DNA of 64,000 bases from Phycisphaerales bacterium. GTDB lineage: Bacteria > Planctomycetota > Phycisphaerae > Phycisphaerales > UBA1924. This document shows positions 3,600-58,027 of the stretch, in pieces. A model generated the notes under the pieces. The model was not told the origin of the DNA. It did not search any database and was given only the letters and a program-made list of their open reading frames with translations. Within the stretch, counting starts at the first letter, position 1. Each line of letters opens with the position of its first letter. Position numbers and translations under genes: made by a program. The stretch spans positions 11,502 to 75,501 of the forward strand of contig JAIEUA010000016.1 in NCBI GenBank assembly GCA_019744815.1, given 5' to 3'.

Positions 3600-4088
3600 A
3601 TGAACCGTGCAATGGGGTTGCTGATGGTGGTGGTGGCTTTCGTCGCGTGGCGACTGCCGGCGCCCAGCGGGGGGAATTCGGGGCCGGGGGCGATTCCGTC
3701 TGATGCCGAGTGTGCGGAATGCGGGATGTCGATCGTGGACGCGCGGTACGCGGCGGCCGCGGCGATTGAGAGCGAGGATGGGATCAAGATTCTGTTCTTC
3801 GATGACGCGGGCTGTCTGTTCGATCACGAGCGGGCGAAGCCGGGCTTGTTGGTCGTTCGCCGCTGGTTTGCGGTGGACGCGGGCGGTGCGTGGCGAGACG
3901 GCGAGCGGGTCGCGTTTCGGATCTCGGCGTCGATCGCGACGCCGATGGGGACGGGGTTGCAGGCGTTTGATCCGCAGACCTCGGAGGCACGCGCGATCGT
4001 TCTGTCGGGAGAGCGATTGGTGACGACGCGAGACGCGGCGGCGTATCGACAGCGGTGGATGGAATCGCGATTCGGGAAGCCGCGGTGA
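3600..4088 (+). CDS. NosL-family (copper chaperone-like) protein
   Basis: CAECGMSIVDARYAAA...FFDDAGCLF matches the CxxCGM ... GC pattern of the NosL family, after an N-terminal hydrophobic segment. Start chosen at the ATG 7 nt after GGAGG (3588-3592); the ORF track starts at 3564. Confidence 0.65.
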   Translation: MNRAMGLLMVVVAFVAWRLPAPSGGNSGPGAIPSDAECAECGMSIVDARYAAAAAIESEDGIKILFFDDAGCLFDHERAKPGLLVVRRWFAVDAGGAWRDGERVAFRISASIATPMGTGLQAFDPQTSEARAIVLSGERLVTTRDAAAYRQRWMESRFGKPR

Positions 4089-11011: not shown

Positions 11012-12088
11012 TTACTTGATCTGGACCGGCTTGCCATCGTGGGTCAGGGAGGCGATCGCGGCGTCGACCGCCTTGCGGACGTTGTCGGAGAGCGGGGCGT
11101 AGTCCATCTGGGTGGCGAGGCTCTGCCCCGAGCTGGTAGCCCACTTCAGGAACGAGACGAGGGCCTTGGCCTCGTCGGCGGTCTTGATGTTGGAGAGGTC
11201 CTTGTAGAGGATGATGTAGGTGAACGCGCTGATGGGGTAGGTCTTCTCGCCGGGCTGGTCCCAGATGTCGGCGCGGAGGATGGTGCCCTTCAGCGTGGCG
11301 GCCGCGCCGTCACCCGCGAGCGACATGGTGTCCGGGGTGGCGAGAATGAACTGGCCGGCTTTGTTCTTGACCGAGCCGTAGGCGATCTTGTTGGCGACGG
11401 CGTAGTTCTGTTCGATGTAGCCGATGGAGCCGGCGGTCTGCTGGATGACGGCGGCGACGCCCTCGTTGCCCTTGCCGCCCTGGCCCAAGGGCCACTTCAC
11501 TTGATTCCCGGCACCGACCTCGCCCTTGAAGGTGGGGCTTTGGGTGGCGAGGTAGCTGGTGAAGACGTGGGTGGTGCCGCTGCCGTCGGTGCGGAAGGCG
11601 GGGGTGATGGCGAGCTTGGGGAGATTGACCCCGGAGTTGAGCTCCTGGAGGCGGGGATCGTCCCAGGAGCTGATCTTGCCCAGGAAGATGTCGGCGAGCA
11701 CGTCGCCGCTGAACTTGATGGTTTCCTTGACGCCGGGCAGGTTGTACGCGGGGACGACGCCGCCGATGACGGCGGGGAACTGAACGACCTTGTCCTCGCC
11801 GCCCATCGCGTCGATTTCTTTCTTGTTCAGAGGCGCGTCGGAGGCGCCGAAGGCGACGGTCTTGTCGGTGATGGACTTGACGCCGCCGCCGGAGCCGATG
11901 CTGCGGTAGTCGATCTTGACGGAGGGGTTGACCTTCTCGTATTCGGCGACCCACTTGGTGTAGAGGGGGGCGGGGAAGGTGGCGCCCGCACCGCCCAGAC
12001 GCACCTCACCGGCCGAGGCGACCTGTCCGCCGACGACGATGGAAACGCCGACCGCCGAGACCCACGCCGCCCGCTGGAGAATGCTCAT
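11012..12088 (-). CDS. pstS: Phosphate-binding protein PstS
   Basis: GAGATFPAPLYTKW, IGSGGG and RTDGSGTT motifs. Signal-like MSILQRAAWVSAVGVSIVVGG. The upstream 62 codons in the ORF track look non-coding (R/S/P-rich). Confidence 0.9.
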   Translation of the reverse strand: MSILQRAAWVSAVGVSIVVGGQVASAGEVRLGGAGATFPAPLYTKWVAEYEKVNPSVKIDYRSIGSGGGVKSITDKTVAFGASDAPLNKKEIDAMGGEDKVVQFPAVIGGVVPAYNLPGVKETIKFSGDVLADIFLGKISSWDDPRLQELNSGVNLPKLAITPAFRTDGSGTTHVFTSYLATQSPTFKGEVGAGNQVKWPLGQGGKGNEGVAAVIQQTAGSIGYIEQNYAVANKIAYGSVKNKAGQFILATPDTMSLAGDGAAATLKGTILRADIWDQPGEKTYPISAFTYIILYKDLSNIKTADEAKALVSFLKWATSSGQSLATQMDYAPLSDNVRKAVDAAIASLTHDGKPVQIK

Positions 12089-36662: not shown

Positions 36663-36786
36663 CAGTCACCGTCCCGTCGGTGGCGGTGCCCGCCCTCTCG
36701 AGTGCGACGCATTCGGCCGGCCGAACACAGGACGATTCGGGTTGAGGGCGATATGCTTAGCACCGCGGCAAGGGCCGCGACATGCT

Positions 36787-36860
36787 GTGCCCGTAGCTCA
36801 ACTGGATAGAGCGCTGCCCTCCGAAGGCAGAGGTTACAGGTTCAACTCCTGTCGGGCATG
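36787..36860 (+). tRNA. tRNA-Arg (anticodon CCG)
   Basis: Acceptor GTGCCCG/CGGGCAT, D arm GCTC..GAGC, anticodon arm CTGCC-CTCCGAA-GGCAG, T arm ACAGG-TTCAACT-CCTGT. Confidence 0.85.
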
Positions 36861-36963
36861 TTTTCTGGTACGAAGGTAAGCCCCGGCGGGCGTCGCGATG
36901 CCCGAAGCATCGCTGACGCTCTGGCTCTCGACCATCGAAACGGGGAGCCGCCGAGGGCGGCGC

Positions 36964-37055
36964 TCATCCCTTCGTCCACATGTTCTTGCCGTAGATCGCG
37001 CTGTCGCCGAGTTCTTCCGCGATACGGAGCAGCTGGTTGTACTTGGCGTTGCGGT
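36964..37055 (-). pseudogene. Truncated duplicate of the enolase 3' end
   Basis: Encodes ...[29 protein letters not shown], versus the intact eno C-terminus [28 protein letters not shown]. About 75 nt align with 4 mismatches to 39135-39210. Similarity decays and the frame breaks upstream of 37055. Confidence 0.8.
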
Positions 37056-37102
37056 GCTGTGGAAACCGGCTCGAGCGGGCCAGCCGGTGGCGGCAGAGCG
37101 GA

Positions 37103-37516
37103 TCAACCAACAACGGTCGCGAAACTCGCCCAGACGAAGACCGTGGCAAAGTAGACGCAAAGTCCCGAAACAATGATGCGCAGGCTCGTCTTTGCGGTGT
37201 CGCCTTGCCAAAGGGTCCGGTCGTAGTACCACAGTTGCACGGCGAGTCGGGCGGCCCAGAACACACCAAGCCCAAGATAGATCACTCGTCCAAGCTCGCC
37301 ACTGCGGAGGATCGTTCCCGCATGGAAGAGCAACAGCAAACCCACAAGCACCAGAATCAGAACGACAAAGAGCGTGTGAACGACGAATATCTGCCGGTTC
37401 AAGAGACTCAGCCGATTCAGTTCTTCACGCCAGCGAAACCACCTTGGGAAGAACGCATGGACGCCGGCAATCAGCAGCATGAGGAGACCGATCGCGCGAA
37501 GATGCCATTCGATCAT
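37103..37516 (-). CDS. Small integral membrane protein (4 predicted TM segments)
   Basis: MIEWHLRAIGLLMLLIAGVHAFF... ATGA start/stop overlap with the upstream methyltransferase-like gene. Low-GC cassette. Confidence 0.5.
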   Translation of the reverse strand: MIEWHLRAIGLLMLLIAGVHAFFPRWFRWREELNRLSLLNRQIFVVHTLFVVLILVLVGLLLLFHAGTILRSGELGRVIYLGLGVFWAARLAVQLWYYDRTLWQGDTAKTSLRIIVSGLCVYFATVFVWASFATVVG

Positions 37517-38292
37517 TCCGATGCCCTTTGAAGTTCGAACACACGCACGAACGGGGTGATCCGGCGTTCGGACACCACTCGCAGCGAGGCGGCTGAGAAG
37601 GTCGCGAGCCACACGCGTTGAGACAGGAAGTGGACAAATCCGCCGCCGAATGCGACGAAGTTCGCCGCATCCCGCAAGTGCTCGACGACGAAACACCGGC
37701 CGCCAGCGGACAAGCGTGAAGAAAGATCGGACATCAACTCAGCGCGGCGATGATCGCGTCGCACCTCGTGCAGGCAGAAGATCGCAAACATGACATCCAC
37801 GTTCTGGACTTGGTCTGGAACAGTCCCGGTGAATCGAACCGACGGCCAAGCCGGTGCCGCATCCTTGCGAGCTCTAGCGATCGACGGTTCCGTCATCTCG
37901 GCCGGATCAAAGATGTCGAGGACGAGAAGGGGAGGCTGACCGAGCACCGCGGCCAAGCCCGGTGTCGACTCGTCCAACCCCGCGTGAACATTGATCCAAC
38001 GGATCGGAGCTCTGAGACCGATCTCTCGAACCCAGGTCCACTCGTACAGCCTGGACCGGTCGTACACCCAGTGAGACACGACGGCCGACGCCAACAGCCA
38101 CCACCCGGCGAGGGCGGCTCCTATCAGAAGGACGGTCGTCGCCCACAGGGGCAGGGGGACCAAGATCGCGGACAAACTCGCCGCCGCCACAACAACGGTC
38201 CCTACCAGATACTGCGGCCAGTTGTAGCGCAGAATCTTGGCGACTCCTTCGAAGGGTCGGCGTTGCGCTGCTTGGAGGAGTTGATCGCTCAT
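37513..38292 (-). CDS. Membrane-anchored class I SAM-dependent methyltransferase-like protein
   Basis: Two N-terminal TM helices, then VLDIFDP, DVMFAIFCLHEV and GGRCFVVEH segments resembling the methyltransferase fold. ATGA overlap with the upstream gene at 38289-38292. Confidence 0.55.
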   Translation of the reverse strand: MSDQLLQAAQRRPFEGVAKILRYNWPQYLVGTVVVAAASLSAILVPLPLWATTVLLIGAALAGWWLLASAVVSHWVYDRSRLYEWTWVREIGLRAPIRWINVHAGLDESTPGLAAVLGQPPLLVLDIFDPAEMTEPSIARARKDAAPAWPSVRFTGTVPDQVQNVDVMFAIFCLHEVRRDHRRAELMSDLSSRLSAGGRCFVVEHLRDAANFVAFGGGFVHFLSQRVWLATFSAASLRVVSERRITPFVRVFELQRASE

Positions 38293-39050
38293 GGCGATGA
38301 CGTTCCAAGCTGCTCCGTGATTCCACGTTCCCACCGATAGTCGATGCCGGATGTGTAGAACGCGCTGGCGAATCTGGCGCCCACGCCCTTGAAGATGGCC
38401 GATCGCAGCATCGACACCTCTCGGACTTCTACTGGTACCGGACGCGGATTCCAGTGCTCTCGCATTCCCTTGATTCGGACGATGGAATGCGTTTCCTTCT
38501 CGTAGTCGAATGTGTACGGCAACGGCCCGGCGAATCGCCGCGCTTCCTTCCACGTCGAGAAGATACCAGCAGGCGGCTCGGCGACCTCGCGATCAACATG
38601 GGCAGTGAGATCAATGTCCGCCTGTTGATCTCCGGAACGAACCCGCACATCAAGTATTCCGTCGACAAATCGAACGTCTGCCTCACAGAGCCGATACTGG
38701 TAGTGGGTCAGCAGATTGCCGCCCCAGACCATCCGCCGCTTGTTGGCATCGCTTCTCAGAATTCGTAGGCCCCGAAGCGTCCGACCTTCCGCGGTCCGAT
38801 ACGTTGCGAATACCCGGTAGCCGGTCAGGAAGAAATCGGATCCCAAAGCCGCGGGGAGACCTACGGGTCGAAGTCGCTCAGTCTGCACCATCGCGACCGC
38901 GACGAATCCGGCACCATTCCATTCGTCCACGGTAAGTCCCGGCGGAAGAAGCGGCTGCAAGATCTCGACCGGGAACGCATACGTGAGCACGAGGCAGTAA
39001 CGAAACCGCGCCTGAATCGGAATGGGATGCCGTTTCAGTCGGTGCAGCAC
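38289..39050 (-). CDS. DUF2071-like (acetoacetate decarboxylase-fold) protein
   Basis: 253 aa. The pattern LVLTYAFPVEILQPLLPPGLTVDEWNGAGFVAVAMVQ...FFLTGYRVF resembles DUF2071 family members. First gene after eno on the same strand. Confidence 0.5.
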   Translation of the reverse strand: MLHRLKRHPIPIQARFRYCLVLTYAFPVEILQPLLPPGLTVDEWNGAGFVAVAMVQTERLRPVGLPAALGSDFFLTGYRVFATYRTAEGRTLRGLRILRSDANKRRMVWGGNLLTHYQYRLCEADVRFVDGILDVRVRSGDQQADIDLTAHVDREVAEPPAGIFSTWKEARRFAGPLPYTFDYEKETHSIVRIKGMREHWNPRPVPVEVREVSMLRSAIFKGVGARFASAFYTSGIDYRWERGITEQLGTSSP

Positions 39051-48081: not shown

Positions 48082-49236
48082 ATGCCTCATCGGATACGCG
48101 TCGGTTTGATCATGGTGTGCGTCCCGCTGGTGGGTCTGCTCGGATGTCAGACGGCTCCGACGTCATTGGCCCCGTCCGCCGCCTTCAAGCGCACGCCCCT
48201 CCCCACCGATGCCGGCGTGCCCGTCAAGCAGTGGTACATGAACACCGAGGACGAGGTGGTGCACTACGTCGCCGAGTACGGCACAGAGACCAAGCCGGGG
48301 AACGTGGTCGTCGTGCTGCACGGCGGCTGGGGCGCTGAGCACAGCTACCTGCTCCCCGCCATCCGCCCGCTCGCAGACGAGTACAAGTTCGTGCTGTACG
48401 ACCAGCGTGGCTCGCTGCGGTCGCCGGTACGTCCGCCGGCCAAGATCACCTACGCCGCTCTGGTCGAAGACCTCGAACAGCTCCGCCAACGCCTCGGACT
48501 CGAGAAGATCACACTGATGGCCCACTCGATGGGCAACCACCTCGCCTACGGCTACCTGCGGGCCCATCCGGAGCGCGTCGCCGGTTTGGTCCTCGTCGGC
48601 GCGACCGTCCCCGCCCCGTTCGGGGAGCAGCGCCCCGCGTTCCTCTCCGACGTCTGGCCCGACTTCGCCGACGCTGACGCTGAGGCGATCGCCGCAAGGC
48701 AGAAGCACTTCGACGACGGCATTCTCAAGCGGACGCTGCGGATCGCCGCCGATGAGGGGATCATTCCCATCGAGGCCGCCTCGGCGACGCCCGAGACGGT
48801 CAAGAGCTTCGGGCTTCAGGAGATCATCAAGACCGATCAGCAAAAGACCGACTGGTGGCGGATTCAGTTCACCTGTGTCAATACACACAACGGTCGAAAC
48901 TGGCGCGAGATGCTCGGCGGTCAGGTCTTCTACAACGGAGAGGCCGGGCAGGCGGTGCTCGAAGATCCGGAGTATCAGGCCGCCACCCGCGACTTCTGGA
49001 GAGCCCTGCGGTCCTTCACCGGGCCGATTCGTGTGATCATCGGTACGGACGACTACGTGGACCTTGGTCCCACGATGTGGCCCCGTCTCGTCGCGCACCT
49101 CCCAACCGCGAAGCTCGACGCCATCCCCAACGCCGGGCATTCCATCTGGATGGATGAGCCGAAACGTTTCCGGCGATCGCTCCGTGCCGCCCTGGGCGCG
49201 ACGACAGCCCGAACCACCGAGCCGCGGCCGCGCTGA
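48082..49236 (+). CDS. Alpha/beta hydrolase lipoprotein (prolyl aminopeptidase-like)
   Basis: Lipobox LVGLLGC. VVLHGGWG, nucleophile elbow MAHSMGN, C-terminal NAGHSIWMDEP. AAGGAG precedes the ATG at 48082. Confidence 0.8.
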   Translation: MPHRIRVGLIMVCVPLVGLLGCQTAPTSLAPSAAFKRTPLPTDAGVPVKQWYMNTEDEVVHYVAEYGTETKPGNVVVVLHGGWGAEHSYLLPAIRPLADEYKFVLYDQRGSLRSPVRPPAKITYAALVEDLEQLRQRLGLEKITLMAHSMGNHLAYGYLRAHPERVAGLVLVGATVPAPFGEQRPAFLSDVWPDFADADAEAIAARQKHFDDGILKRTLRIAADEGIIPIEAASATPETVKSFGLQEIIKTDQQKTDWWRIQFTCVNTHNGRNWREMLGGQVFYNGEAGQAVLEDPEYQAATRDFWRALRSFTGPIRVIIGTDDYVDLGPTMWPRLVAHLPTAKLDAIPNAGHSIWMDEPKRFRRSLRAALGATTARTTEPRPR

Positions 49237-49336
49237 GTTGAAACTGGCCGAATCGCGCGAGCAGGGAACCACCCGAGGACGCTGGATGCAAGCGACCGCT
49301 TGCGGGGCGGCAGCACTGGGCAGATCCCAAAACGAC

Positions 49337-49368
49337 AACCCCCGAGTCTTGCGACCCGGGGGTTCTTC
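49337..49368 (+). terminator. Hairpin downstream of the hydrolase gene
   Basis: AACCCCCG / CGGGGGTT 8-bp stem with a 12-nt loop, followed by CTTC; the T-run is weak. Confidence 0.4.
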
Positions 49369-49521
49369 GAATAGAGGATGGATAGCGGGGATCGAACGGG
49401 GCTGCGCCGCTCACGCCGATATTCGCCTCTATCGGGAGGCGAGCGCGTCTCGCGGACCACTCCGCTCGGCCCGATGAGGCGAGTTGAGAATGCCACTTCT
49501 CGGCCTCTCGAAGGCCAACCG

Positions 49522-51048
49522 TCAGCCCCCCAGGCCGCTGTCGGGCTGCTTGTACCCCTCCGCCACGGCTCGCTCGAGTCGGTCAATTTCTTCATTGGTC
49601 AACAGCCGGAAGTGCGACTCCCGCTTCCGCTGGGACAACTTCCCGTTGTTCTGCAGACAGAATCGGATGAACAGGTCGATATCGCGATCGGGCATGTCGA
49701 CGATCGCCTGCACGGAGCGCTTTGTGTCGTCGTAGTTCGCCAGGAAGGCCAGCTCTTCGACGAGTTCCGTTTCGATGGTCTGCTCGACGAAGGTGAACAG
49801 GCTCTCGGCCTGCACGGTCATGTCCGGGTACCTGTACCAAACGCCGGGATCGTTGTGGACCGTCATGCGCCCCTGATCGTCGAGCGTGTATTCCACCAAC
49901 GCCAAGAGCGGGCGTGAGAAGGCCTCCAGCGACGCGTCATACGCTGCGGCCTGCTTGCGCATCGCCGCTGAAACTGGGAAGATCACCCCTTCCGGCACGA
50001 AACCTCTCCGACTGAGGATGTTGTGGATGAGGAGACGGTGGATGCGGCCATTGCCATCCTCGAACGGGTGAACGAACACGAAGCCGTATCCAACGATCGC
50101 CGCCTGGATAACTGGATGGACGGAGCCGCGCTCCATCCGTACGTGCGCCGAGATGATCCCCGCCATCAGGGCCGTGACGTGCTCGGGCTTCGGGCAGACG
50201 TAGTGCACGCGCTCCTTCCCGATGGAGACCGTCTCGCCGACGTAGTTTTGGCTGTCGCGGTAGTCGTCATCCTTGAACCGAGGGTCCACGATCTGATTCT
50301 GGAGATCGATCAGCCGCGGCTTGGTGCACAGGTCCTCTTTTAGAGCGACTCGCAGAAGAGCGATGAATCGCTCGGTTCTGTTCGCGTCCGGTTTGATGTT
50401 CTCGATCTCGAAGGACGACTTTGTCTCCTTCGTGTACAGGTAGCTCAGTGCTCGTCGGAGGAGTTCGGGAGAGTACGACGAGATCAGCGTTCTGCACCGG
50501 GCGGAAAGATCCCGTGCGATGAATGCCGAAATGGTCTCCGTTTTCCGAATCGTCGGACAGAAGCTCGCGTCGCCGAGCAGATTGTTGTTGACACGCTGGC
50601 GTCGAATCGGCTCCGCGCGATCGAACGTGAAGTGCTCCTCGCTCTCCAGGAGATCCACGTAGTTTCCCTGCGTCAGGTCGGCAAGCGGGAGACGATCGCC
50701 GGTCAGCATCTCGTAGAAGTACCAGATGCGGCGGGCGTATTTCCCGTTCGGCTTCGAGTTGATGTATCTGGCGATCTCGTTCGCCCCGATCGCCGGCAGA
50801 AGGACCGCCAGGATGCCAAGGTTCATTCCGTCGTACTTCAGGGCGAACTCGAGGTGGTCTCCTGGACTCTCACCCGGCCAGTACGCAGCCGGGTATGTCT
50901 CGACGACCTCGCCCGCTGATGAATCGGTTCGTCGGGTACTACCCTCAGAAATGACGGACCGATGCCAGTTTGGCATCGCGCGGATCGCATATCGATCGAG
51001 CAGCGCGGTGTAGCCTGCGGGCCGGGTTGTCGCCTTTGGCTGGTCCAT
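49522..51048 (-). CDS. Fic/DOC family protein (508 aa) with internal inhibitory-helix motif
   Basis: Fido core HPFEDGNGRIHRLLIH (HxFx[DE]GNGRxxR). Upstream SSFEIEN fits the [ST]xxxE[GN] alpha-inh motif. GAGGAG precedes the ATG. Lower GC than the flanks. Confidence 0.85.
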   Translation of the reverse strand: MDQPKATTRPAGYTALLDRYAIRAMPNWHRSVISEGSTRRTDSSAGEVVETYPAAYWPGESPGDHLEFALKYDGMNLGILAVLLPAIGANEIARYINSKPNGKYARRIWYFYEMLTGDRLPLADLTQGNYVDLLESEEHFTFDRAEPIRRQRVNNNLLGDASFCPTIRKTETISAFIARDLSARCRTLISSYSPELLRRALSYLYTKETKSSFEIENIKPDANRTERFIALLRVALKEDLCTKPRLIDLQNQIVDPRFKDDDYRDSQNYVGETVSIGKERVHYVCPKPEHVTALMAGIISAHVRMERGSVHPVIQAAIVGYGFVFVHPFEDGNGRIHRLLIHNILSRRGFVPEGVIFPVSAAMRKQAAAYDASLEAFSRPLLALVEYTLDDQGRMTVHNDPGVWYRYPDMTVQAESLFTFVEQTIETELVEELAFLANYDDTKRSVQAIVDMPDRDIDLFIRFCLQNNGKLSQRKRESHFRLLTNEEIDRLERAVAEGYKQPDSGLGG

Positions 51049-51059
51049 TGCTGACTCCT

Positions 51060-51186
51060 CAAAACGGATACGACGACGCCAAAATCGTTATGGAAGGCCA
51101 TTGTACCACCAAAACGGTTACGGAAGCGGATCAAACTCGGTATGTTTGGATTGTGGACGGATTTTTCGTCCCAAAACTGGTACAGA
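51060..51186. promoter_or_regulatory. Phased direct repeats (CAAAAC-GGTTAYGGAA-like) in the fic/jetA divergent control region
   Basis: Copies at 51060 (CAAAACGGATACGA), 51080 (CAAAATCGTTATGGAA), 51110 (CAAAACGGTTACGGAA), 51132 (CAAACTCGGTATG) and 51172 (CAAAACTGGTACAGA). Spacings are 20, 30, 22 and 40 bp. Confidence 0.5.
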
Positions 51187-51351
51187 GCACACGGCCTTCG
51201 ACACGAACGGACACTCGCAGCCGGATTTGCTCGCCAGAGCACCGGACAGGCATGGTCTGAAGCCGCCACGCGATCTCCATCGGAGCGCTGCCCGCAGATG
51301 CCGTGGCAACTACCCTATTCCCGTGGAAACCAGAGCGATCGGAAAGCCGCC

Positions 51352-52821
51352 ATGCGCCTTGACCTGCTTCTCGCATATTTTGGCACGTCGCCAGCGCTGA
51401 AGTTGCTGCGGGCACAACACGCGCCGTTCGTGATTGACTTTCTCCACCGGCAATTCAAGGCACCAGGCCGCATCTCGCTACCCGCGTCTGATCTTGTAAG
51501 CGCTTTGAACGACTACCGGGAGTCCGTGCAAACAACCCATCCGGACGCCTTGCGCGACAAACCCGAGCACTACCTGTCCGCTTGGTGTAGTGGGGAAACA
51601 CGCTGGCTGCACCGCTCCGTCGAAGGGGGCCGGAACGAGCCGGTGTTTCAGTTGACGCCGCACACAGAGGACGTGTTCATATTCCTCGACCGCGCGCTCC
51701 AGAAAGACCTGGGGTTCGTCGGCACCGAGTCCCGCCTGCGCGTCGTGATCAGCACTCTGGCCGATCTCGTCGCCGGTGCCTCGCACGATCCCGAAGTTCG
51801 CTTGGCGCATCTCCGAGAGGAACGCACAAGGATCGATGATGAGATCGGACAGATCCTGAGAGATGGCGGGGTCGAGGCGCGGTATGAACCGGCAGCGGTG
51901 CGAGAGCGGTTCGCCACCGCTGTTGGACTGCTCAAGGAACTGCTCTCGGATTTCCGCGCCGTTGAAGACCGCTTCAAGGAGATCACCCGCCAGGTACAGC
52001 GGCGGCAACTTGATGGAAAGGACTCCCGAGGCGAGATTCTTCAGTTCGCGCTCGACGCAGAGGATGTTCTGAAGCAGGACGATCAGGGCGTGAGTTTCTA
52101 CGAGTTTGTGCGCTTCATTCTCTCGCCCACCCAACAGGAAAAGCTCCAGACGATCATCGCCGAACTCGGGAGGATCGACGAACTTTCGCAGCAATCCGAC
52201 GGGCTCGCCACGGTGCGCCGAATGGTGCCGTCACTGATCGCGGACGCCGAAAAGGTGATGCGGACCAATCAACGTCTCTCTGCCACGCTGCGTCGACTGC
52301 TGGATGTCCGGACCGCGTCGGATCGGCGTCGAGTAACCCAACTACTCGCGGACATCCGGGGTCTCGGTGCCGCCCTTGCCGATGCGCCCCCCGCGGCGAT
52401 CAGCGCCACGGTGGATGTTGGCGTCCATGTGGCATTCCCGTTCTCGCGGACGTTCTGGAGCCCTCCCGCCGAGTTTGCGAAGATGGACCTTTCGGAGGGA
52501 CAGGTTGACGATGCACGGCGTGTCGAGTTGTTCAGGATGCTCGCCCAACTCCATCGCCTCGACTGGGCAGCGATGCGACAACGCATTCGTGCCCTTACAT
52601 CCCGCACCGGCAGGTCCATGACCCTTTCCGAGGTGGTGCGGGAGTTTCCACCGGAAGCAGGCATTGTCGAGCTCTTGGGATACATACAGATCGCCAAAGA
52701 TGACGGACACATCATCAGCCGTGAACGGTCCGAGGACATCCAGGTCGACGGGGCCGTCTCTCGCCGCGTCACCGTCCCGCTGATTGTGTTTCTCCCTCCC
52801 CAGGAGACCGCGAATGCCTAA
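51352..52821 (+). CDS. jetA: Wadjet system protein JetA (DUF3375, MksF-like kleisin)
   Basis: MRLDLLLAYFGTSPALKLLRAQHAPFVIDFLHRQF... and FVGTESRLRVV resemble DUF3375. First gene of a four-gene overlapping operon. Confidence 0.75.
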   Translation: MRLDLLLAYFGTSPALKLLRAQHAPFVIDFLHRQFKAPGRISLPASDLVSALNDYRESVQTTHPDALRDKPEHYLSAWCSGETRWLHRSVEGGRNEPVFQLTPHTEDVFIFLDRALQKDLGFVGTESRLRVVISTLADLVAGASHDPEVRLAHLREERTRIDDEIGQILRDGGVEARYEPAAVRERFATAVGLLKELLSDFRAVEDRFKEITRQVQRRQLDGKDSRGEILQFALDAEDVLKQDDQGVSFYEFVRFILSPTQQEKLQTIIAELGRIDELSQQSDGLATVRRMVPSLIADAEKVMRTNQRLSATLRRLLDVRTASDRRRVTQLLADIRGLGAALADAPPAAISATVDVGVHVAFPFSRTFWSPPAEFAKMDLSEGQVDDARRVELFRMLAQLHRLDWAAMRQRIRALTSRTGRSMTLSEVVREFPPEAGIVELLGYIQIAKDDGHIISRERSEDIQVDGAVSRRVTVPLIVFLPPQETANA

Positions 52822-53434
52822 CCCCTCTTCATCTCCGATCCCCGAGTTCCGCGAATGGAGCATCGCGGCAGTTCGATTGCTGCAGGGGGTCATCTACGCG
52901 GACGAAGACCGGGTGTGGAACATTTTGCTGTCCAATCGGTCGCAGATTGAGACCTTTTTGGCCCGCTTGGGTCTCACGCTCGTCGTCGACGAAGCGGAGG
53001 GATACGCATACGTGCGTCAATGGGGAGAAGACGAATGCCCGAGTGGGTACGAGCAGCTGCCGAAGCTGGTTCGTCGCAGCCAACTCGGATATGCGCCCAC
53101 GATGCTCGCCGTGCTGTTTCGGGACGAGCTCCGGCGGTTCGAAGAAGATGATCTTCACAACGAACGATGCGTTGTCGAGATCGACGCCATCTTCGACCAA
53201 TGGAAGGGGTTCTTTCCCGCCCAATACGACGAAGTGCGTCAGCGCAAGGAGTTCAGCGCCGCCCTGCACAAACTCGATGACCTGGGGTTCGTGCGAAAGT
53301 TCGCCGACAATCCCGAAGCGTGGGAAGTCCGCCGCATTCTGAAGGCGAAACTCCCCGCGTCCGAGCTCGAAACGCTGAAACAACAGTTGGCAGCAGCCGC
53401 GGCGGCTCGCACGCAGGGGGATTCTGATGCATGA
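52814..53434 (+). CDS. jetB: Wadjet system protein JetB (DUF4194, MksE-like)
   Basis: AVRLLQGVIYADEDRVWNILL...LGLTLVVDEAEGYAYVRQ...LGFVRKF...WEVRRILKA matches the DUF4194 pattern. 8-nt overlap with jetA; GGAG upstream. Confidence 0.75.
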   Translation: MPNPSSSPIPEFREWSIAAVRLLQGVIYADEDRVWNILLSNRSQIETFLARLGLTLVVDEAEGYAYVRQWGEDECPSGYEQLPKLVRRSQLGYAPTMLAVLFRDELRRFEEDDLHNERCVVEIDAIFDQWKGFFPAQYDEVRQRKEFSAALHKLDDLGFVRKFADNPEAWEVRRILKAKLPASELETLKQQLAAAAAARTQGDSDA

Positions 53435-56400
53435 TGCTCCGCGACTAACACCCGGCTACCGGCTCCAAAAGCTCGAAGTTTCCAACTGGGGAACGTTCGA
53501 CAGCAGCCGTGGCACGGTGCATGTGGTCAAGCCCTGCGGCGCTACCACGCTCCTGATCGGCCAGAATGGTTCGGGCAAGTCCACTCTGGTGGATGCCCTG
53601 TTGACCCTGTTCGTGCGTCCGGTTGTTCGCAACTACAACGTCGCCGCCGGTGCTCAGAAGACCGAGCGTGATGAGCGGACCTACATCAAGGGGGCGTTCG
53701 ACCGGCGAAGCCGTGACGAAGACAATCGGGCGGAGGTCCAGTTCCTCCGACCCGATGGACGGCACTACTCGACCTTGCTGGCGACCTTCAAGAACGATCG
53801 CGGCGAGGCCTTTACTGTCGCGCAGGTTCTGTACCTTGGCGGTGACGGAGGTGCCGAGAAGGTCTACGCCTTCGCGCAGGGCGAGAAGTCGATCGCCGAG
53901 CACTGTGCCAACCTTGCCACCACTGAGCGGGTGCGCCAGCAGATGGAGAAGCGCGGTTTCCGCGCCACCGACAAGTACAACGAGTATCACGGCTGGGTTG
54001 CCAAGTTCACAGGCATGCAGCCAAAGGCGATGGATGTGTTCAACCAGACCGTCGCGGTCAAGGACATCCAGAGTCTGAACAAGTTCATCCGTGAGCACAT
54101 GCTCGAGCCGAAGCCGTGGATGGAGAAGATCGAGACGCTGCAGGCGCACTTCACCCAGCTCACGGAAGCCTATCAAAGCCTGGTGCGCGTCCGTCGGCAG
54201 TTCGAACTGCTCACGCCGATTGCGGCGAAGGGCGCAACCTTCACGGCGCAATCGGACGCGTTGCGACTCGCTCAAGCCATGTGCGGTGCCGCAGGTCCGT
54301 ACTTTCGGGCGATGACGATCGAGCTTCTCGGGCCGGCGGCAGAGTTCCTTAAGAAGGAACTCTCGGCGCTCGTGGTCACCAGGGATCGTCTCGATACGGA
54401 GTTGCGGGACGCGGCCGACGAAGAGCGGCAGTTGAAGAATGAGATCGAGAACGCCGGGGGCGAGAGGCTTCGTCAGATTCCGTTGCTTATTAAGCAGCAC
54501 GAGACCGAGAGCGCCAACCGGCGAGAACGCAGCGTTCGTTTCATGGCTGCGCTGGCCACGACGGGGGTCGCCGCGGATGTGACGGACGACGCCTCGCTGC
54601 GCGAGCTGCACCAACGTCTGCCGGAGTTCATCAAGGTCTTGAGCACTCGCGAGGAAGCGCTCCGGCGTGAACATCAGGATGTCGTGCTCGATCGCGGCGA
54701 TGCGCACCGCGAACTCAGCGAGAGCAAGCGGGAGCTCGAGGCGCTCGGCACCCGCCACACGAAGCTCCCGGAGCGTCATGTGGAGATTCGCCGGCAACTC
54801 TGCGAAGCGCTGCGGCTGCCGGACAGCGAACTCCCGTTCGCGGCGGAGCTCATCACCATCCCGACGGAGGAGAAGAGCTGGGAGGCCTCGATCGAGCTAT
54901 TGCTCCGATCCTTTGCGCTCAGTTTGCTGGTGCCACAGAAGCACTACGCCGTTGTCAGTGCCCACATCGACCGGAACCGGGTCCGTGATGGCCGCGGCGT
55001 CGGTCAGAAGCTCGTGTATCTCCGCGTCGGTGGGCGTACTGCGCCACAATCACGCCCTGTCGCCCATTCTCAGTCGTTGCTCCGCAAGGTCAAAGTCAAG
55101 GACGGGCACGGCCTTGCGCCCTGGGTGAAGGGGGAGTTGGAGGAACGGTTCGACTACCTCTGCTGCGACACCATCGAGCAGTTTCAGGCTGCTCACGATA
55201 TGGCCCTTACCCGTGAGCGCCACATCAAGGGAAGGGGCACGCGACACGAGAAAGACGACCGGGATCGCGCGATCGATCCACGCGAGTTCGTTCTAGGGTG
55301 GGACAATCGCGAGAAGCGGAAGGCGCTCGCCGAGAACGTCCGGCAGCTCGAAGCCGAACTGTCCACGATGGATGCCCGGCTGAATAAGTTGAATGCAGAG
55401 ATCACGGGACTTGACGCTCAGCGCCGCTCGGCGGACGTGCTGCGAGAGACCGCGGTGTACTCCTTGATTGACTTCGCGTCGGAACAAGTCGCCATCGCGG
55501 CACTGCGGGAGGAGAAGCGCGCGCTTGAGGAATCGAGCGATGCGTTGAAAACGCTGAAGCGTCGCATCTCCGAAGTCGAGGCAACTCGGCAGCGTCTCAG
55601 CGGCGAGCGCGACGATGCTATCCGGCAGCACGAGCGTGCCTCGCAGGATTTGCGCTTTGCGGAACGCCAGATTTCGGACGCCACCCAGGCCATCTCGACG
55701 CTCCGGAAGACGGGCGAATGGTCGCGGCACGAGGAGCTGTTCCCCGAACTTTCCAAGCTCTTTGAAGGGGAGCCCCTGACTGTACACAACGTCACGCAGA
55801 GGGAGGCAGGCTTCCTTGCTGACCGGCATGCCGAAGTCGAACGTCTGAAGAAGGAGCTGGAGCCACTGGAGCGTGAGATCTGCAAACTCATGAATCAGTA
55901 TCTCCGAGACTTTGCAGATCAGCAGGCCGATCTGGACGCATCCATCGAGTACCTGGGGAGCTTCTGTGCCGCGTGCGAGCATATCCGGCGCGAAGACCTG
56001 CCCCGGCACGAAAACCGCTTCAAGGAACGGCTCAACGAGAAGGTCACGCAAGAGATCGGCATTCTCAACGGCGCCTTCCAAACCGAGAAGCAGGAGATCG
56101 AACAGAAGATCGAGATCCTCAACCGCTCGCTCAGGCAACTGGAGTACAGGCCAGGGACGTACATGAAGCTCGAGCCGCGGGCGGTCCGAGACGTGGAGAT
56201 CCAGCAGTTTCAGTCCAGCCTGCGCGAGTGTCTCGCCGATTCGTTTGAGGGAACGCTCGCAGCGGATGAGGCGCGCTATGTCCGGATTGCCAAGCTCATC
56301 GAAAAGCTCCGCGAGGAACAGCGCTGGCGAGAGAAGGTCACCGATGTCAGGCGATGGTTTGACTTTGCCGCACGAGAGCTTGACGCTGAGTCGGGCGCGG

Positions 56401-56822
56401 AGCGGGGCTACTACGAGGACAGCACCGGCCAATCTGGGGGAGAGAAGGCCAAACTTGCGTTCACCATCCTGGTCGCAGCGATCGCGTACCAATACGACAT
56501 CGACCCGAGCCGGCCCAGCAGCGATCGCTTCCACTTTGTGGTGGTCGACGAGATGTTTTCAAAGGTCGACGACCGCTATGCCGAGTACGCCCTGTCGCTC
56601 TTCCGGCAGTTCGGGCTTCAGCTGTTGATCGTGGCCCCTTTGGACGCCAAGGCCCGGGTCACCGAGCCATACGTGGAGTGCTATCTCCACGTCGTCAAGG
56701 ACTCCAAGACGCACCAATCGGAGATCTTCAGCATGACGGCGAGAGAGTTTGAGGACACCGTGTTGGGTCGACCCGCGGTGGTGACAGTTTCCCCAGCATC
56801 GGCGGCAAGCGTGACTCGATGA
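53427..56822 (+). CDS. jetC: Wadjet system SMC-like ATPase JetC (MksB-like)
   Basis: 1131 aa. N-terminal LEVSNWGTFD and Walker A GQNGSGKST, long coiled-coil middle, C-terminal SGGEKAKLAF and Walker B FHFVVVDEMFSKVD. 8-nt overlap with jetB. Confidence 0.85.
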   Translation: MHDAPRLTPGYRLQKLEVSNWGTFDSSRGTVHVVKPCGATTLLIGQNGSGKSTLVDALLTLFVRPVVRNYNVAAGAQKTERDERTYIKGAFDRRSRDEDNRAEVQFLRPDGRHYSTLLATFKNDRGEAFTVAQVLYLGGDGGAEKVYAFAQGEKSIAEHCANLATTERVRQQMEKRGFRATDKYNEYHGWVAKFTGMQPKAMDVFNQTVAVKDIQSLNKFIREHMLEPKPWMEKIETLQAHFTQLTEAYQSLVRVRRQFELLTPIAAKGATFTAQSDALRLAQAMCGAAGPYFRAMTIELLGPAAEFLKKELSALVVTRDRLDTELRDAADEERQLKNEIENAGGERLRQIPLLIKQHETESANRRERSVRFMAALATTGVAADVTDDASLRELHQRLPEFIKVLSTREEALRREHQDVVLDRGDAHRELSESKRELEALGTRHTKLPERHVEIRRQLCEALRLPDSELPFAAELITIPTEEKSWEASIELLLRSFALSLLVPQKHYAVVSAHIDRNRVRDGRGVGQKLVYLRVGGRTAPQSRPVAHSQSLLRKVKVKDGHGLAPWVKGELEERFDYLCCDTIEQFQAAHDMALTRERHIKGRGTRHEKDDRDRAIDPREFVLGWDNREKRKALAENVRQLEAELSTMDARLNKLNAEITGLDAQRRSADVLRETAVYSLIDFASEQVAIAALREEKRALEESSDALKTLKRRISEVEATRQRLSGERDDAIRQHERASQDLRFAERQISDATQAISTLRKTGEWSRHEELFPELSKLFEGEPLTVHNVTQREAGFLADRHAEVERLKKELEPLEREICKLMNQYLRDFADQQADLDASIEYLGSFCAACEHIRREDLPRHENRFKERLNEKVTQEIGILNGAFQTEKQEIEQKIEILNRSLRQLEYRPGTYMKLEPRAVRDVEIQQFQSSLRECLADSFEGTLAADEARYVRIAKLIEKLREEQRWREKVTDVRRWFDFAARELDAESGAERGYYEDSTGQSGGEKAKLAFTILVAAIAYQYDIDPSRPSSDRFHFVVVDEMFSKVDDRYAEYALSLFRQFGLQLLIVAPLDAKARVTEPYVECYLHVVKDSKTHQSEIFSMTAREFEDTVLGRPAVVTVSPASAASVTR

Positions 56823-58027
56823 TTCAGCCCGAAGACATCTCGCGCAAGGCCCTCGCGATCTATCGCGAGTACCTGCGTGCTTGGGTTCAGGGGGATGGTC
56901 AGTACTTTCCACGGCGCGTGCCCGCTCAAAGGGACCCGGGACCTGATGTCGTCACCGCGATTGACCAGGTCAGACGGTTGCGCGAGGGTTCAGAGGAAGT
57001 GCTCGGGTACGGATACTCCGTGGAGTGGAAGGAGGTTCAGTCGCGGCGGCACGGAAAGAACCTGTTCCCCAGCAAGGTGCTTTTCGCCACCGAGCTTGAT
57101 CTCTTGCGTGTAATTGGTAAGGAACGGGAGTTCCGAAGGTTCACAGAGGCGGTCACTCGCCTCAGGGCCGAGTTTCCCGAACTGGATTCATGGGTCAGGT
57201 CAAACATCGGGGTCTTCACTGACGCCGCGCCAGACCTGGAGGGTCTGGTCGAAGTCCTTCGGTACTTCAAGGAGCATCCACGCCCGAATCTATTCGCTCG
57301 GGAGCTCCCACTGTCCGTGGACTCCAAGTTCATCGAGCGCCATGAGCGACTCCTCGCGCAATGGCTGGACGTCATCCTGCCGCCGCACGAAGTGCGTGCA
57401 GACGAGGACCACTTTGCGCGTCGGTACGGACTCCGCTATCACGAGCCCGACATATTCGTGCGATTTCTCGACCCCGCCGTTCAGGCTGAGCTGGGGATTC
57501 CCTACGAGGCTCTGGCGGTCCCGCTGCACACGGTGGGTGGTTGGACCATTCGGAACGTCCGCGCAATGATCGTCGAGAACCGCGTGAACCTGATGACTTT
57601 GCCGAAGTGCACGCGCACTGTCGCCATCGGCGGCCTGGGGAACGGTGCATCGCTGCTGCGGTATGTCTCCTGGCTCCAGCACGCCCGCGTGTGTTATTGG
57701 GGCGATCTGGACAGCGAGGGCATTGTGATCCTGTCTCGAGTCCGATCCATATATCCGGCGACCGAGAGCCTGTTCATGGATTGCGCGACGCTAGATCTCT
57801 TCCGCCACCTCGCGGGCAAGGGCAGCGGACGTCGCCCTCCCGGGCCCCCAGCAAATCTGACACCATCCGAGGCGGAGGCGTTCAGGATCTGCGATGAAGA
57901 AGGGCTGCGACTCGAACAGGAGCGCATTCCACAGGCGGCCGTGGTCGAGGCGTTCGCGCACAGGCTGGGTGCGAGGCATGACGCTCCGATGTCCAGTTCT
58001 CTCGTCGCTTCCAAGCGTCAGGTCTGA
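56819..58027 (+). CDS. jetD: Wadjet system Toprim nuclease JetD (DUF3322 + DUF2220)
   Basis: N-terminal YFPRRVP...GYGYSVEW...HGKNLFPSKVLF (DUF3322-like). C-terminal Toprim residues MIVENRVN and YWGDLDSEGIVIL. ATGA overlap with jetC. Confidence 0.8.
   Translation: MIQPEDISRKALAIYREYLRAWVQGDGQYFPRRVPAQRDPGPDVVTAIDQVRRLREGSEEVLGYGYSVEWKEVQSRRHGKNLFPSKVLFATELDLLRVIGKEREFRRFTEAVTRLRAEFPELDSWVRSNIGVFTDAAPDLEGLVEVLRYFKEHPRPNLFARELPLSVDSKFIERHERLLAQWLDVILPPHEVRADEDHFARRYGLRYHEPDIFVRFLDPAVQAELGIPYEALAVPLHTVGGWTIRNVRAMIVENRVNLMTLPKCTRTVAIGGLGNGASLLRYVSWLQHARVCYWGDLDSEGIVILSRVRSIYPATESLFMDCATLDLFRHLAGKGSGRRPPGPPANLTPSEAEAFRICDEEGLRLEQERIPQAAVVEAFAHRLGARHDAPMSSSLVASKRQV

Follow-up and report, generated by a model that had tools for sequence, protein, structure and literature searches.

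The DNA under study is a 64,000-nucleotide stretch (positions 11,502 to 75,501, forward strand) of contig JAIEUA010000016.1 from a Phycisphaerales bacterium assembly (GCA_019744815.1), hereafter called the window. It carries a block of about 8.5 kb in which fic, a gene for a large Fic-domain protein, is transcribed divergently from jetABCD, the four genes of a Wadjet system (Table 1). An initial annotation, made from the sequence alone, had proposed that the two are partners, with the Fic protein serving as a second effector or as a regulator of Wadjet. Our analysis indicates instead that the region is probably a small, laterally acquired defence islet in which two self-sufficient modules, both of known kinds, happen to be neighbours. 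One is a canonical Wadjet operon, and the other is a single-gene Fic cassette that has a promoter region and a terminator of its own, as well as four direct repeats of 13 to 16 nucleotides that are phased at multiples of 10 base pairs.

The layout of the divergent region depends on the choice of start codon for jetA. In the list of open reading frames (ORFs), the longest form of the jetA frame starts at 51142 and would cross the fic repeat array. We place the true start at 51352 because the Pfam and PADLOC JetA/DUF3375 profiles begin near residues 71 to 76 of the long ORF, which corresponds to the ATG at this position, because the gene calls of relatives give the same length of 489 amino acids, and because conservation points to the same codon. 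The spacer between the divergent genes is therefore 303 base pairs long, as first annotated, and the phased repeats that had been noticed there proved to be four direct repeats.

On sequence criteria, jetABCD is fully supported as a complete and canonical type I Wadjet operon. Pfam and PADLOC profiles agree with the identities originally assigned to its products, namely a DUF3375-like JetA, a DUF4194-like JetB, an SMC-like (structural maintenance of chromosomes) JetC and a Toprim JetD, encoded in the canonical order, and the best PADLOC match in each case is a type I model. The overlaps of 8 nucleotides between jetA and jetB, 8 between jetB and jetC, and 4 between jetC and jetD are borne out by the coordinates and are as expected for translational coupling in such operons. 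Also present are the motifs listed earlier for JetC (Walker A, GQNGSGKST, from residue 45; Walker B, VVVDEMF, from residue 1038) and for JetD (VEN from residue 252; DLDSEG from residue 296), and JetD matches PF11795 (E = 1e-35) and PF09983 (E = 9e-32). The gene order, domains and Walker motifs are those of type I Wadjet, the JetABCD or MksBEFG-like anti-plasmid SMC system, with no structural difference in this example. The operon represents the Planctomycetota (Phycisphaerae), and its nearest genome record is a Phycisphaeraceae metagenome-assembled genome (MAG).

In Wadjet systems, the SMC-like JetABC complex loads on DNA, extrudes loops, and recognizes small circular molecules by stalling. 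The stalled complex then activates the JetD Toprim nuclease, and the circular DNA is cut. By analogy with the known family, the operon in the window would be expected to operate in the same manner, with loop extrusion and small-circle sensing by JetABC followed by cleavage by JetD.

Table 1. Features of the fic-jet block and of related loci. Coordinates are those of the window unless another locus (L number) is named.
Feature	Coordinates	Strand	Description
Intrinsic terminator of the fic transcription unit	49337..49364	-	12-bp stem with 8 G-C pairs, then GTCGTTTTGG
fic	49522..51048	-	508 aa; Fic-domain protein; PADLOC PDC-S24 family
fic-jetA divergent spacer	51049..51351		303 bp
Repeat D	51059..51074	-	GTATCCGTTTTGA on the fic strand; directly 5' of the GGAG ribosome-binding site
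Repeat C	51079..51094	-	ATAACGATTTTGG; 20 nt from D; counterpart in the family consensus lies over the -10 box
Repeat B	51109..51124	-	GTAACCGTTTTGG; 30 nt from C; counterpart in the family consensus lies over the -35 box (GTAAnnnTTTTTCTTGAC)
Repeat A	51171..51186	-	GTACCAGTTTTGG; 62 nt from B; kept in L001 though its surroundings have diverged
jetA-proximal block	51265..51351	+	Conserved between window and L001; presumed jetA promoter and leader; no repeat copy; separate from the fic array
jetA	51352..52821	+	489 aa; DUF3375; PADLOC JetA1 (E = 5.4e-105); PF11855 (E = 1.5e-90)
jetB	52814..53434	+	206 aa; DUF4194/MksE-like; PADLOC JetB1 (E = 4.4e-50); PF13835 (E = 7.6e-37); PF21980 (E = 6e-11)
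jetC	53427..56822	+	1131 aa; SMC-like ATPase; PADLOC JetC1 (1049 bits, residues 8-1110)
jetD	56819..58027	+	402 aa; DUF3322 and JetD_C Toprim-type domain; PADLOC JetD1 (E = 4e-116)
DUF2924 and recombinase pair, jetD side	L001:356-2340; L173:14418-15485		L173 is the 69% relative
DUF2924 and recombinase pair, fic side	L081:1383-3493; L163:10850-11667

The Fic protein belongs to a family that PADLOC already lists, under the name PDC-S24 (PDLC04966), as a candidate defence gene that stands alone; the term ‘phage defence candidate’ (PDC) has been explained elsewhere (PMC11514479). The match is full-length (E = 1.3e-183, 609 bits, residues 8 to 500 on positions 4 to 490 of the 497-position profile), and we note no difference at the protein level from a family whose members are lone genes with variable neighbours. 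As the initial annotation had stated, the 508-residue ORF carries both a Fic active site and the sequence SSFEIEN. The active site, HPFEDGNGRIHR at residues 327 to 338, conforms to HxFx(D/E)GNGRxxR, and the Fic domain is recognized by PF02661 (E = 2.9e-14). Its motif residues are invariant in 20 homologues, with the exception of E329, which is nearly invariant (at least 90%).

The SSFEIEN sequence occupies residues 211 to 217 (window 50398-50418), and the form of the inhibitory-type motif in the window is S212-F-E-I-E-N217, with S211-E215 invariant in the family. The family consensus is SSFEIEH, and SSFEIEN is the form found in the window and in its closest relative, L001. Most PDC-S24 relatives thereby deviate from the class II pattern (S/T)xxxE(G/N) at the last position, with the glutamate invariant. 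At the level of sequence, the earlier reading of the protein as a class II-type enzyme with a putative internal inhibitory motif is supported. In the structure model, confidence is low at residues 208 to 221, a segment that spans the motif. Solved Fic structures resemble only approximately residues 265 to 390, by both sequence and fold, and a fold search with the whole protein returned Fic proteins only. The model also depicts the C-terminal region as helical (approximately residues 410 to 497).

The family is large and widely dispersed, comprising 4746 clusters at E ≤ 1e-10. Among the cluster matches listed, those outside the near relatives of the window protein are 62% to 73% identical across distant phyla, and members found by tblastn are 58% to 65% identical across at least 15 phylum-level groups. 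Full-length homologues with 38% to 44% identity reside on 261 plasmids, 125 of them from Pseudomonas, and on no phage record. One such copy, on the Rhodovastum atsumiense plasmid NZ_OW485604.1, sits amid insertion sequence (IS) transposases. Another cassette, with a bacterial-type TTGACT/TATAAT promoter and a full repeat array, is on a 2.7-kb contig of a Methanosarcinales archaeon MAG (L034), which reflects either a cross-domain transfer or a mis-binned bacterial contig.

The relationship between Fic and Wadjet was evaluated by a census conducted from both sides, a test that the initial annotation had itself named. On the Fic side, the retention of one genome per species yielded 585 relatives, the best 80 of which, from at least 15 phyla, were kept with up to 10 kb of sequence on each side; the upstream reach exceeds 2 kb in 59 of these loci and 5 kb in 47. 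Searches by tblastn, by phmmer, and with profile hidden Markov models built from 24 to 70 diverse Jet proteins agree that jet genes are present in only one of the 80 loci. This locus, L001, is from a Phycisphaeraceae MAG, and its Fic and JetA proteins are 91% and 97% identical to those of the window. No protein family recurs as a neighbour of Fic in more than six of the 80 loci. The immediate neighbours are mixed, with many ordinary metabolic or regulatory genes and some defence or toxin genes (AbiEii, AbiLi, PtuA, a type I methyltransferase, PD-T4-6 and PDC-S01).

On the Jet side, metagenomes were scanned with a JetA profile, which produced 80 loci. A Fic gene is present in four, all of which have 99% to 100% JetA identity and represent the window's own population, and the other 76 loci carry no ORF with the Fic active-site motif HPFxxGN[GK]R. 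The nearest Wadjet relatives outside the clade are without Fic: the relative with 74% JetA identity (L171/L172) has a different divergent gene, and upstream of the one with 69% identity (L173/L174) lie RmuC and a type I restriction-modification system. A second relative with 74% identity (L170) is uninformative on the presence of Fic, as just 193 nucleotides of upstream sequence are available. Because the one case in 80 and the four cases in 80 all fall within one near-clonal clade, there is no family-level association, and the proposal that Fic is a partner, a second effector or a regulator of Wadjet is not upheld in either direction. A limited literature search for a link between Fic and Wadjet returned incidental co-mentions only. 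The arrangement is best described as a lineage-specific juxtaposition, and it is very doubtful that a real functional coupling exists.

Within this one Phycisphaerae lineage, fic and the four jet genes are nevertheless passed on together, as one block of 8.5 kb. Window positions 49533-57991 align with L001 in a single 8476-bp alignment with 88% nucleotide identity, with unrelated flanks on both sides, and each contig that encodes an identical Fic protein has the jet genes as well. Between the window and L001 the block is a mosaic, as JetA, JetB and JetC are 96% to 97% identical, Fic is 91% identical, and JetD (L001:2994-4232) is only 75% identical. The low JetD value could be due either to exchange of the nuclease gene by recombination or to its faster evolution.

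The surroundings of the block suggest why two such modules might come to lie side by side. Sister contigs share the right flank and diverge leftward at the fic terminator (window 49328-49370, depending on the contig), such that this terminator forms the left edge of homology with L081, L083 and L084. A pair of genes encoding a DUF2924 protein and a large serine recombinase (Resolvase, Recombinase and Zn_ribbon_recom domains) is often found beside the block or beside Wadjet operons related to it; in some loci the pair lies on the jetD side and in others on the fic side (Table 1). The two recombinases share 51% identity. The Wadjet subclade thus seems to ride on or beside serine-recombinase elements. 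The surroundings have the properties of a strain-variable hotspot, and the block those of a small mobile defence islet, which corresponds to co-mobilization rather than co-function. We consider the two modules to be adjacent because defence genes gather in the same mobile hotspots. The jetA upstream regions of relatives that lack Fic do not align with that of the window, and no junction for insertion of the cassette could be located from them.

One sister contig, L083, carries the terminator-bearing 63-bp segment (window 49326-49388) twice, at 1683-1744 and 3978-4040. The two copies bracket a 2.3-kb insert that encodes a DUF1214/DUF1254 protein, and the segment may be a recombination or attachment site.

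In the window itself, the block is flanked on the left by genes for an alpha/beta hydrolase and a subtilase, and on the right by a heavy-metal P-type ATPase gene followed by an RND pump. The metal-resistance cluster described on the right is thus present, but the tRNA-like remnant described at the left edge was not detected: ARAGORN found none, Rfam (E ≤ 5, 48900-51400) found none, and the closest tRNA to the block is at 36786-36861. A tRNA-derived attachment site at the left edge was rejected on these results, and the structured element located there is the fic terminator, a strong hairpin that lies approximately 160 nucleotides past the fic stop codon. No serine recombinase is encoded in the 64-kb window and no recombinase is encoded among the flanking ORFs that were scanned, in keeping with the earlier remark that there is no integrase. 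The low GC content of the block was described correctly in direction only. The sampled 60-nucleotide lines do have values of 55% to 58%, but they are unrepresentative, since the block averages 61.1% compared with 65.7% to its left and 66.8% to its right, a dip of about 5 points, and core genes do not average 70% or more.

A second low-GC patch (window 37000-39000, 59.8% to 60.6%) directly follows the tRNA-Arg(CCG) gene at 36786-36861. Pfam recognizes either nothing or only DUF2071 in the ORFs of the patch. Enolase and ftsY come next, and the patch may be a small tRNA-associated insertion.

The repeats between fic and jetA are specific to this spacer. Of the degenerate pattern CAAAAYNGNTAY, the 64-kb window has four occurrences, all within the spacer, compared with an expectation of 0.05, and none of 100 shuffles reached four occurrences. 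When the spacer is compared with that of L001, conservation is evident for about 90 nucleotides beside fic (repeats D, C and B), for repeat A, and for about 85 nucleotides beside jetA, and the middle has diverged. No match to a sigma-70 consensus promoter was found in the spacer of the window.

The arrangement recurs in members of the Fic family that have no Wadjet system nearby. In most family members, an array of strand-specific GTAAnnnTTTTT units, spaced by 20, 30 and 50 nucleotides, extends over the promoter and the 5' leader. Across 78 fic upstream regions, there are 259 sense and 8 antisense occurrences of GTAANNNTTTT (with up to one mismatch), and mononucleotide shuffles yield a mean of 21.8 ± 4.7 with a maximum of 34. 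At least two copies are present in about 83% of loci, most commonly four per locus, and the modal spacings are 20 (43 cases), 50 (41 cases) and 30 nucleotides (37 cases). The density of units is about 1.5 per 100 nucleotides in the 200 nucleotides preceding the fic start and about 0.05 elsewhere.

A column-wise consensus of 41 loci anchored on the -35 box reads gTAA.TaTTTTTCTTGAC - N - TaTAA.tATAaTTCttg - N - gTAAtcgTTTTTc.gGagga - ATG. The -35 box carries one unit, the -10 box has another, 30 nucleotides on, and a third follows 20 nucleotides farther on, just ahead of the ribosome-binding site, with one to three additional units upstream. Units D, C, B and A of the window follow this family layout of 20, 30 and upstream spacings with a GC-shifted sequence, GTAWCNRTTTTGR. 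This high-GC version has altered forms of the TTGAC and TATAAT-like boxes that most of the family shares. The Rhodovastum plasmid homologue, which is 42% identical, retains the 30 and 20 spacing with a unit sequence that is different again. These comparisons indicate that the phased repeats belong to Fic and not to jet.

The array is also the only feature that accompanies the gene. No k-mer is enriched downstream of fic or beyond position -300 upstream, and no small ORF on the same strand recurs downstream in more than three loci (74 of the 80 have a usable downstream flank). Since neither the 3' flank nor any small ORF or neighbour is conserved, the transferable unit would consist of fic and about 220 bp of control DNA. 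We also considered whether the repeats might constitute an RNA antitoxin of the kind used by type III toxin-antitoxin systems. This candidate was ruled out because the units are short, the spacers between them are not repeated, and the units lie on or upstream of the promoter boxes, where most of them would not be transcribed.

The simplest candidate for a reader of the array is the Fic protein itself, because the cassette occurs in hosts as far apart as an archaeal MAG and Bacillota and is accompanied by no second gene. A natural operator variant provides a clue to the portion of the protein that might be responsible. In five loci (L006, L011, L012, L020 and L044, from Planctomycetota, Lentisphaerota, Kiritimatiellia and Nitrospirota), each repeat is GGCGCnTTTTTC instead of GTAAnnnTTTTTC, such that GTAA is replaced by GGCGC and the T-tract is kept. 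The Fic proteins of these loci are each other's closest relatives. All of the six or seven residues that separate the GGCGC class from the GTAA class (37, 43, 48, 101, 127 and 129, plus 30) fall in the N-terminal domain, and none falls in the Fic core or the C terminus. This domain also carries the invariant basic motifs KPxGKYARRxW and RRQRxNxN. Given this covariation, the basic motifs, and the precedent of another Fic protein described below, we infer that the N-terminal domain is a candidate reader of the array.

From these observations we tentatively propose that each PDC-S24 Fic gene forms a toxin cassette of one gene that represses itself and is transferred between phyla along with some 220 bp of control DNA, and that the N-terminal domain of the protein, about 200 residues long, reads four to six phased 16-nucleotide units, GTAAnnnTTTTTCnnG. 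In such a cassette, Fic would bind the array, most likely through its N-terminal domain, and repress its own transcription, and the internal glutamate motif and helix (invariant E215) would keep the AMP-transferase activity low. Infection or another stress would relieve one or both of these brakes. The released enzyme could then modify (AMPylate) an essential protein of the host or of the invader and arrest growth, in an abortive-infection or toxin type of response, as judged by analogy with SoFic, a defence protein discussed below. The identities of the array binder and of the Fic target, and the role in defence, are all inferred.

Several observations weigh against this proposal or against the independence of the two modules. 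The N-terminal 200 or so residues and the C-terminal 120 or so residues of Fic match no Pfam domain (noise only at E ≤ 10), and the model of the N-terminal domain, which has low confidence at residues 127 to 170, has no significant fold match in the PDB (best E = 0.15); no DNA-binding fold was recognized. The covariation between operator and N-terminal domain comes from one clade and so represents one evolutionary event, and in a second, deeper subfamily the separating residues have no domain bias. Phased T-tracts may act through DNA curvature instead. PDC-S24 is only a candidate defence family, and a limited search of the literature found no experimental paper on its function. With regard to independence, co-selection of fic and jet is possible because the window and L001 share a co-inherited block, and the divergent promoters lie within 303 bp, so that cross-talk could occur in principle.

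Comparison with known systems helps to define what is distinctive about the cassette. SoFic, a class II Fic protein, is a validated defence against phage (PMC11514479; PMC12249575), and is reported to act on EF-Tu. The window protein shares with the SoFic type (Shewanella oneidensis SO_4266) the HPFx(D/E)GNGR core, a putative inhibitory-type motif N-terminal to the core, regulation within a single polypeptide and an extra C-terminal domain, and SoFic-type structures are its nearest folds. However, only the core aligns (PADLOC SoFic, 80 bits over residues 261 to 379). In NCBIfam, the only named match is likewise to the SoFic core and falls below threshold, with 27 bits against a cut-off of 550 for the equivalog NF046030. 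The protein examined here has, in addition, the N-terminal domain of about 200 residues, which is without a detectable relative.

A precedent for a Fic enzyme that serves as a DNA-binding autorepressor is CccR of Yersinia pseudotuberculosis, a protein with Fic and helix-turn-helix (HTH) portions that represses its own promoter (PMC9755527). The array described here likewise covers the promoter region of its own fic gene. The two differ in that CccR, a type VI secretion system effector, relies on its C-terminal HTH to bind a long-spacer palindrome, whereas the present cassettes have four to six head-to-tail direct repeats for which the N-terminal domain is the putative reader. The AbiE system, a type IV toxin-antitoxin pair with a winged HTH antitoxin (AbiEi), is similar to the proposed cassette in being an autoregulated toxin module with repeated operators, but it consists of two genes and its toxin is a nucleotidyltransferase rather than a Fic protein. 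AbiEi and Rv2827c appear among the fold matches of the N-terminal domain, at values that are not significant (E of 0.4 to 0.9, probability at most 0.35).

Class I Fic toxin-antitoxin pairs (FicT/FicA and VbhT/VbhA) were rejected as a model because no separate small antitoxin gene recurs beside fic, and no small antitoxin-like ORF resembling AS1 of SoFic is conserved downstream of fic across the loci. With respect to the PADLOC definition of PDC-S24, the conserved upstream repeat array is outside its content. This operator-like array, together with its apparent link to the N-terminal domain, is the sole new element of the locus, and it is absent from the literature covered by our limited search.

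Some of these same data could be accommodated by other explanations. One is that the Fic cassette has no immune role. It would be either a selfish toxin of the addiction type or a stress-signalling enzyme, would spread horizontally and would stabilize its island or plasmid, and its position next to Wadjet would be a side effect of inserting at a recombination hotspot. The 58% to 65% identity retained over at least 15 phylum-level groups with no conserved neighbour is consistent with this view, as are the many ordinary metabolic or regulatory neighbours, the occurrence of the 38% to 44% identical homologues on 261 plasmids and no phage, the transposases around the Rhodovastum copy, and the serine-recombinase elements beside the block in relatives. 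However, PADLOC lists the family as a phage-defence candidate, in other genomes several of the directly adjacent genes serve in defence, and SoFic demonstrates that a class II Fic protein can protect against phage. Selfish and immune roles are compatible, and we regard this explanation as unlikely.

A second explanation is that the repeats are DNA-bending, phased T-tracts that act through curvature or through a general nucleoid protein, in the manner of an UP element or a silencing sequence, and are not operators for a specific protein. Every unit indeed has a T4-T5 tract, and spacings in multiples of about 10 bp have the geometry of static curvature. However, the GTAA columns match the T-tract in information and are held at a fixed distance of 3 nucleotides from it, the strand specificity is strict (259 sense versus 8 antisense), and in one protein subclade every copy has GGCGC where the others have GTAA, with the T-tract retained. 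Moreover, hosts that range from archaea to Bacillota have no common nucleoid proteins. Given in particular how strand-specific the array is and how well its non-T half-site is conserved, we rank curvature low, as an improbable basis for the array.

Least probable of all is a coupling confined to this lineage, in which Fic serves this Wadjet as a co-regulated second effector or regulator with a functional divergent layout, recruited either as a growth-arrest back-up for occasions when plasmid cleavage fails or as an enzyme that AMPylates a Jet subunit: although the fic-jetABCD unit is kept at 88% nucleotide identity in two genomic contexts, is found in all population contigs bearing the exact Fic protein, and has divergent start codons 303 bp apart, there is no association in either census direction outside the clade with at least 97% JetA identity, the fic array has the same layout as in cassettes with no nearby Wadjet and stops short of the conserved jetA-proximal block, and the mosaic identities (JetD 75%, Fic 91%, JetABC 96% to 97%) are unlike those of a tightly co-adapted unit. 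Such recruitment as a back-up effector is less likely than the self-repressing cassette.

The locus therefore adds an example of type I Wadjet from the Planctomycetota and provides no new Fic-Wadjet system to claim. Its broader value resides in the Fic cassette, which belongs to a widespread and unstudied family with a strictly phased promoter array, variants of which track residues of the N-terminal domain. If the self-repressing cassette model is correct, the units that cover the -35 and -10 boxes and the ribosome-binding site would couple the level of the toxin to its own occupancy of the DNA, and the Fic protein would be a one-protein counterpart of the conditional repression used by toxin-antitoxin systems. 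The array can also serve as a cis-signature for finding and delimiting Fic cassettes, and it offers a lead on how a single-polypeptide Fic toxin may be kept silent.

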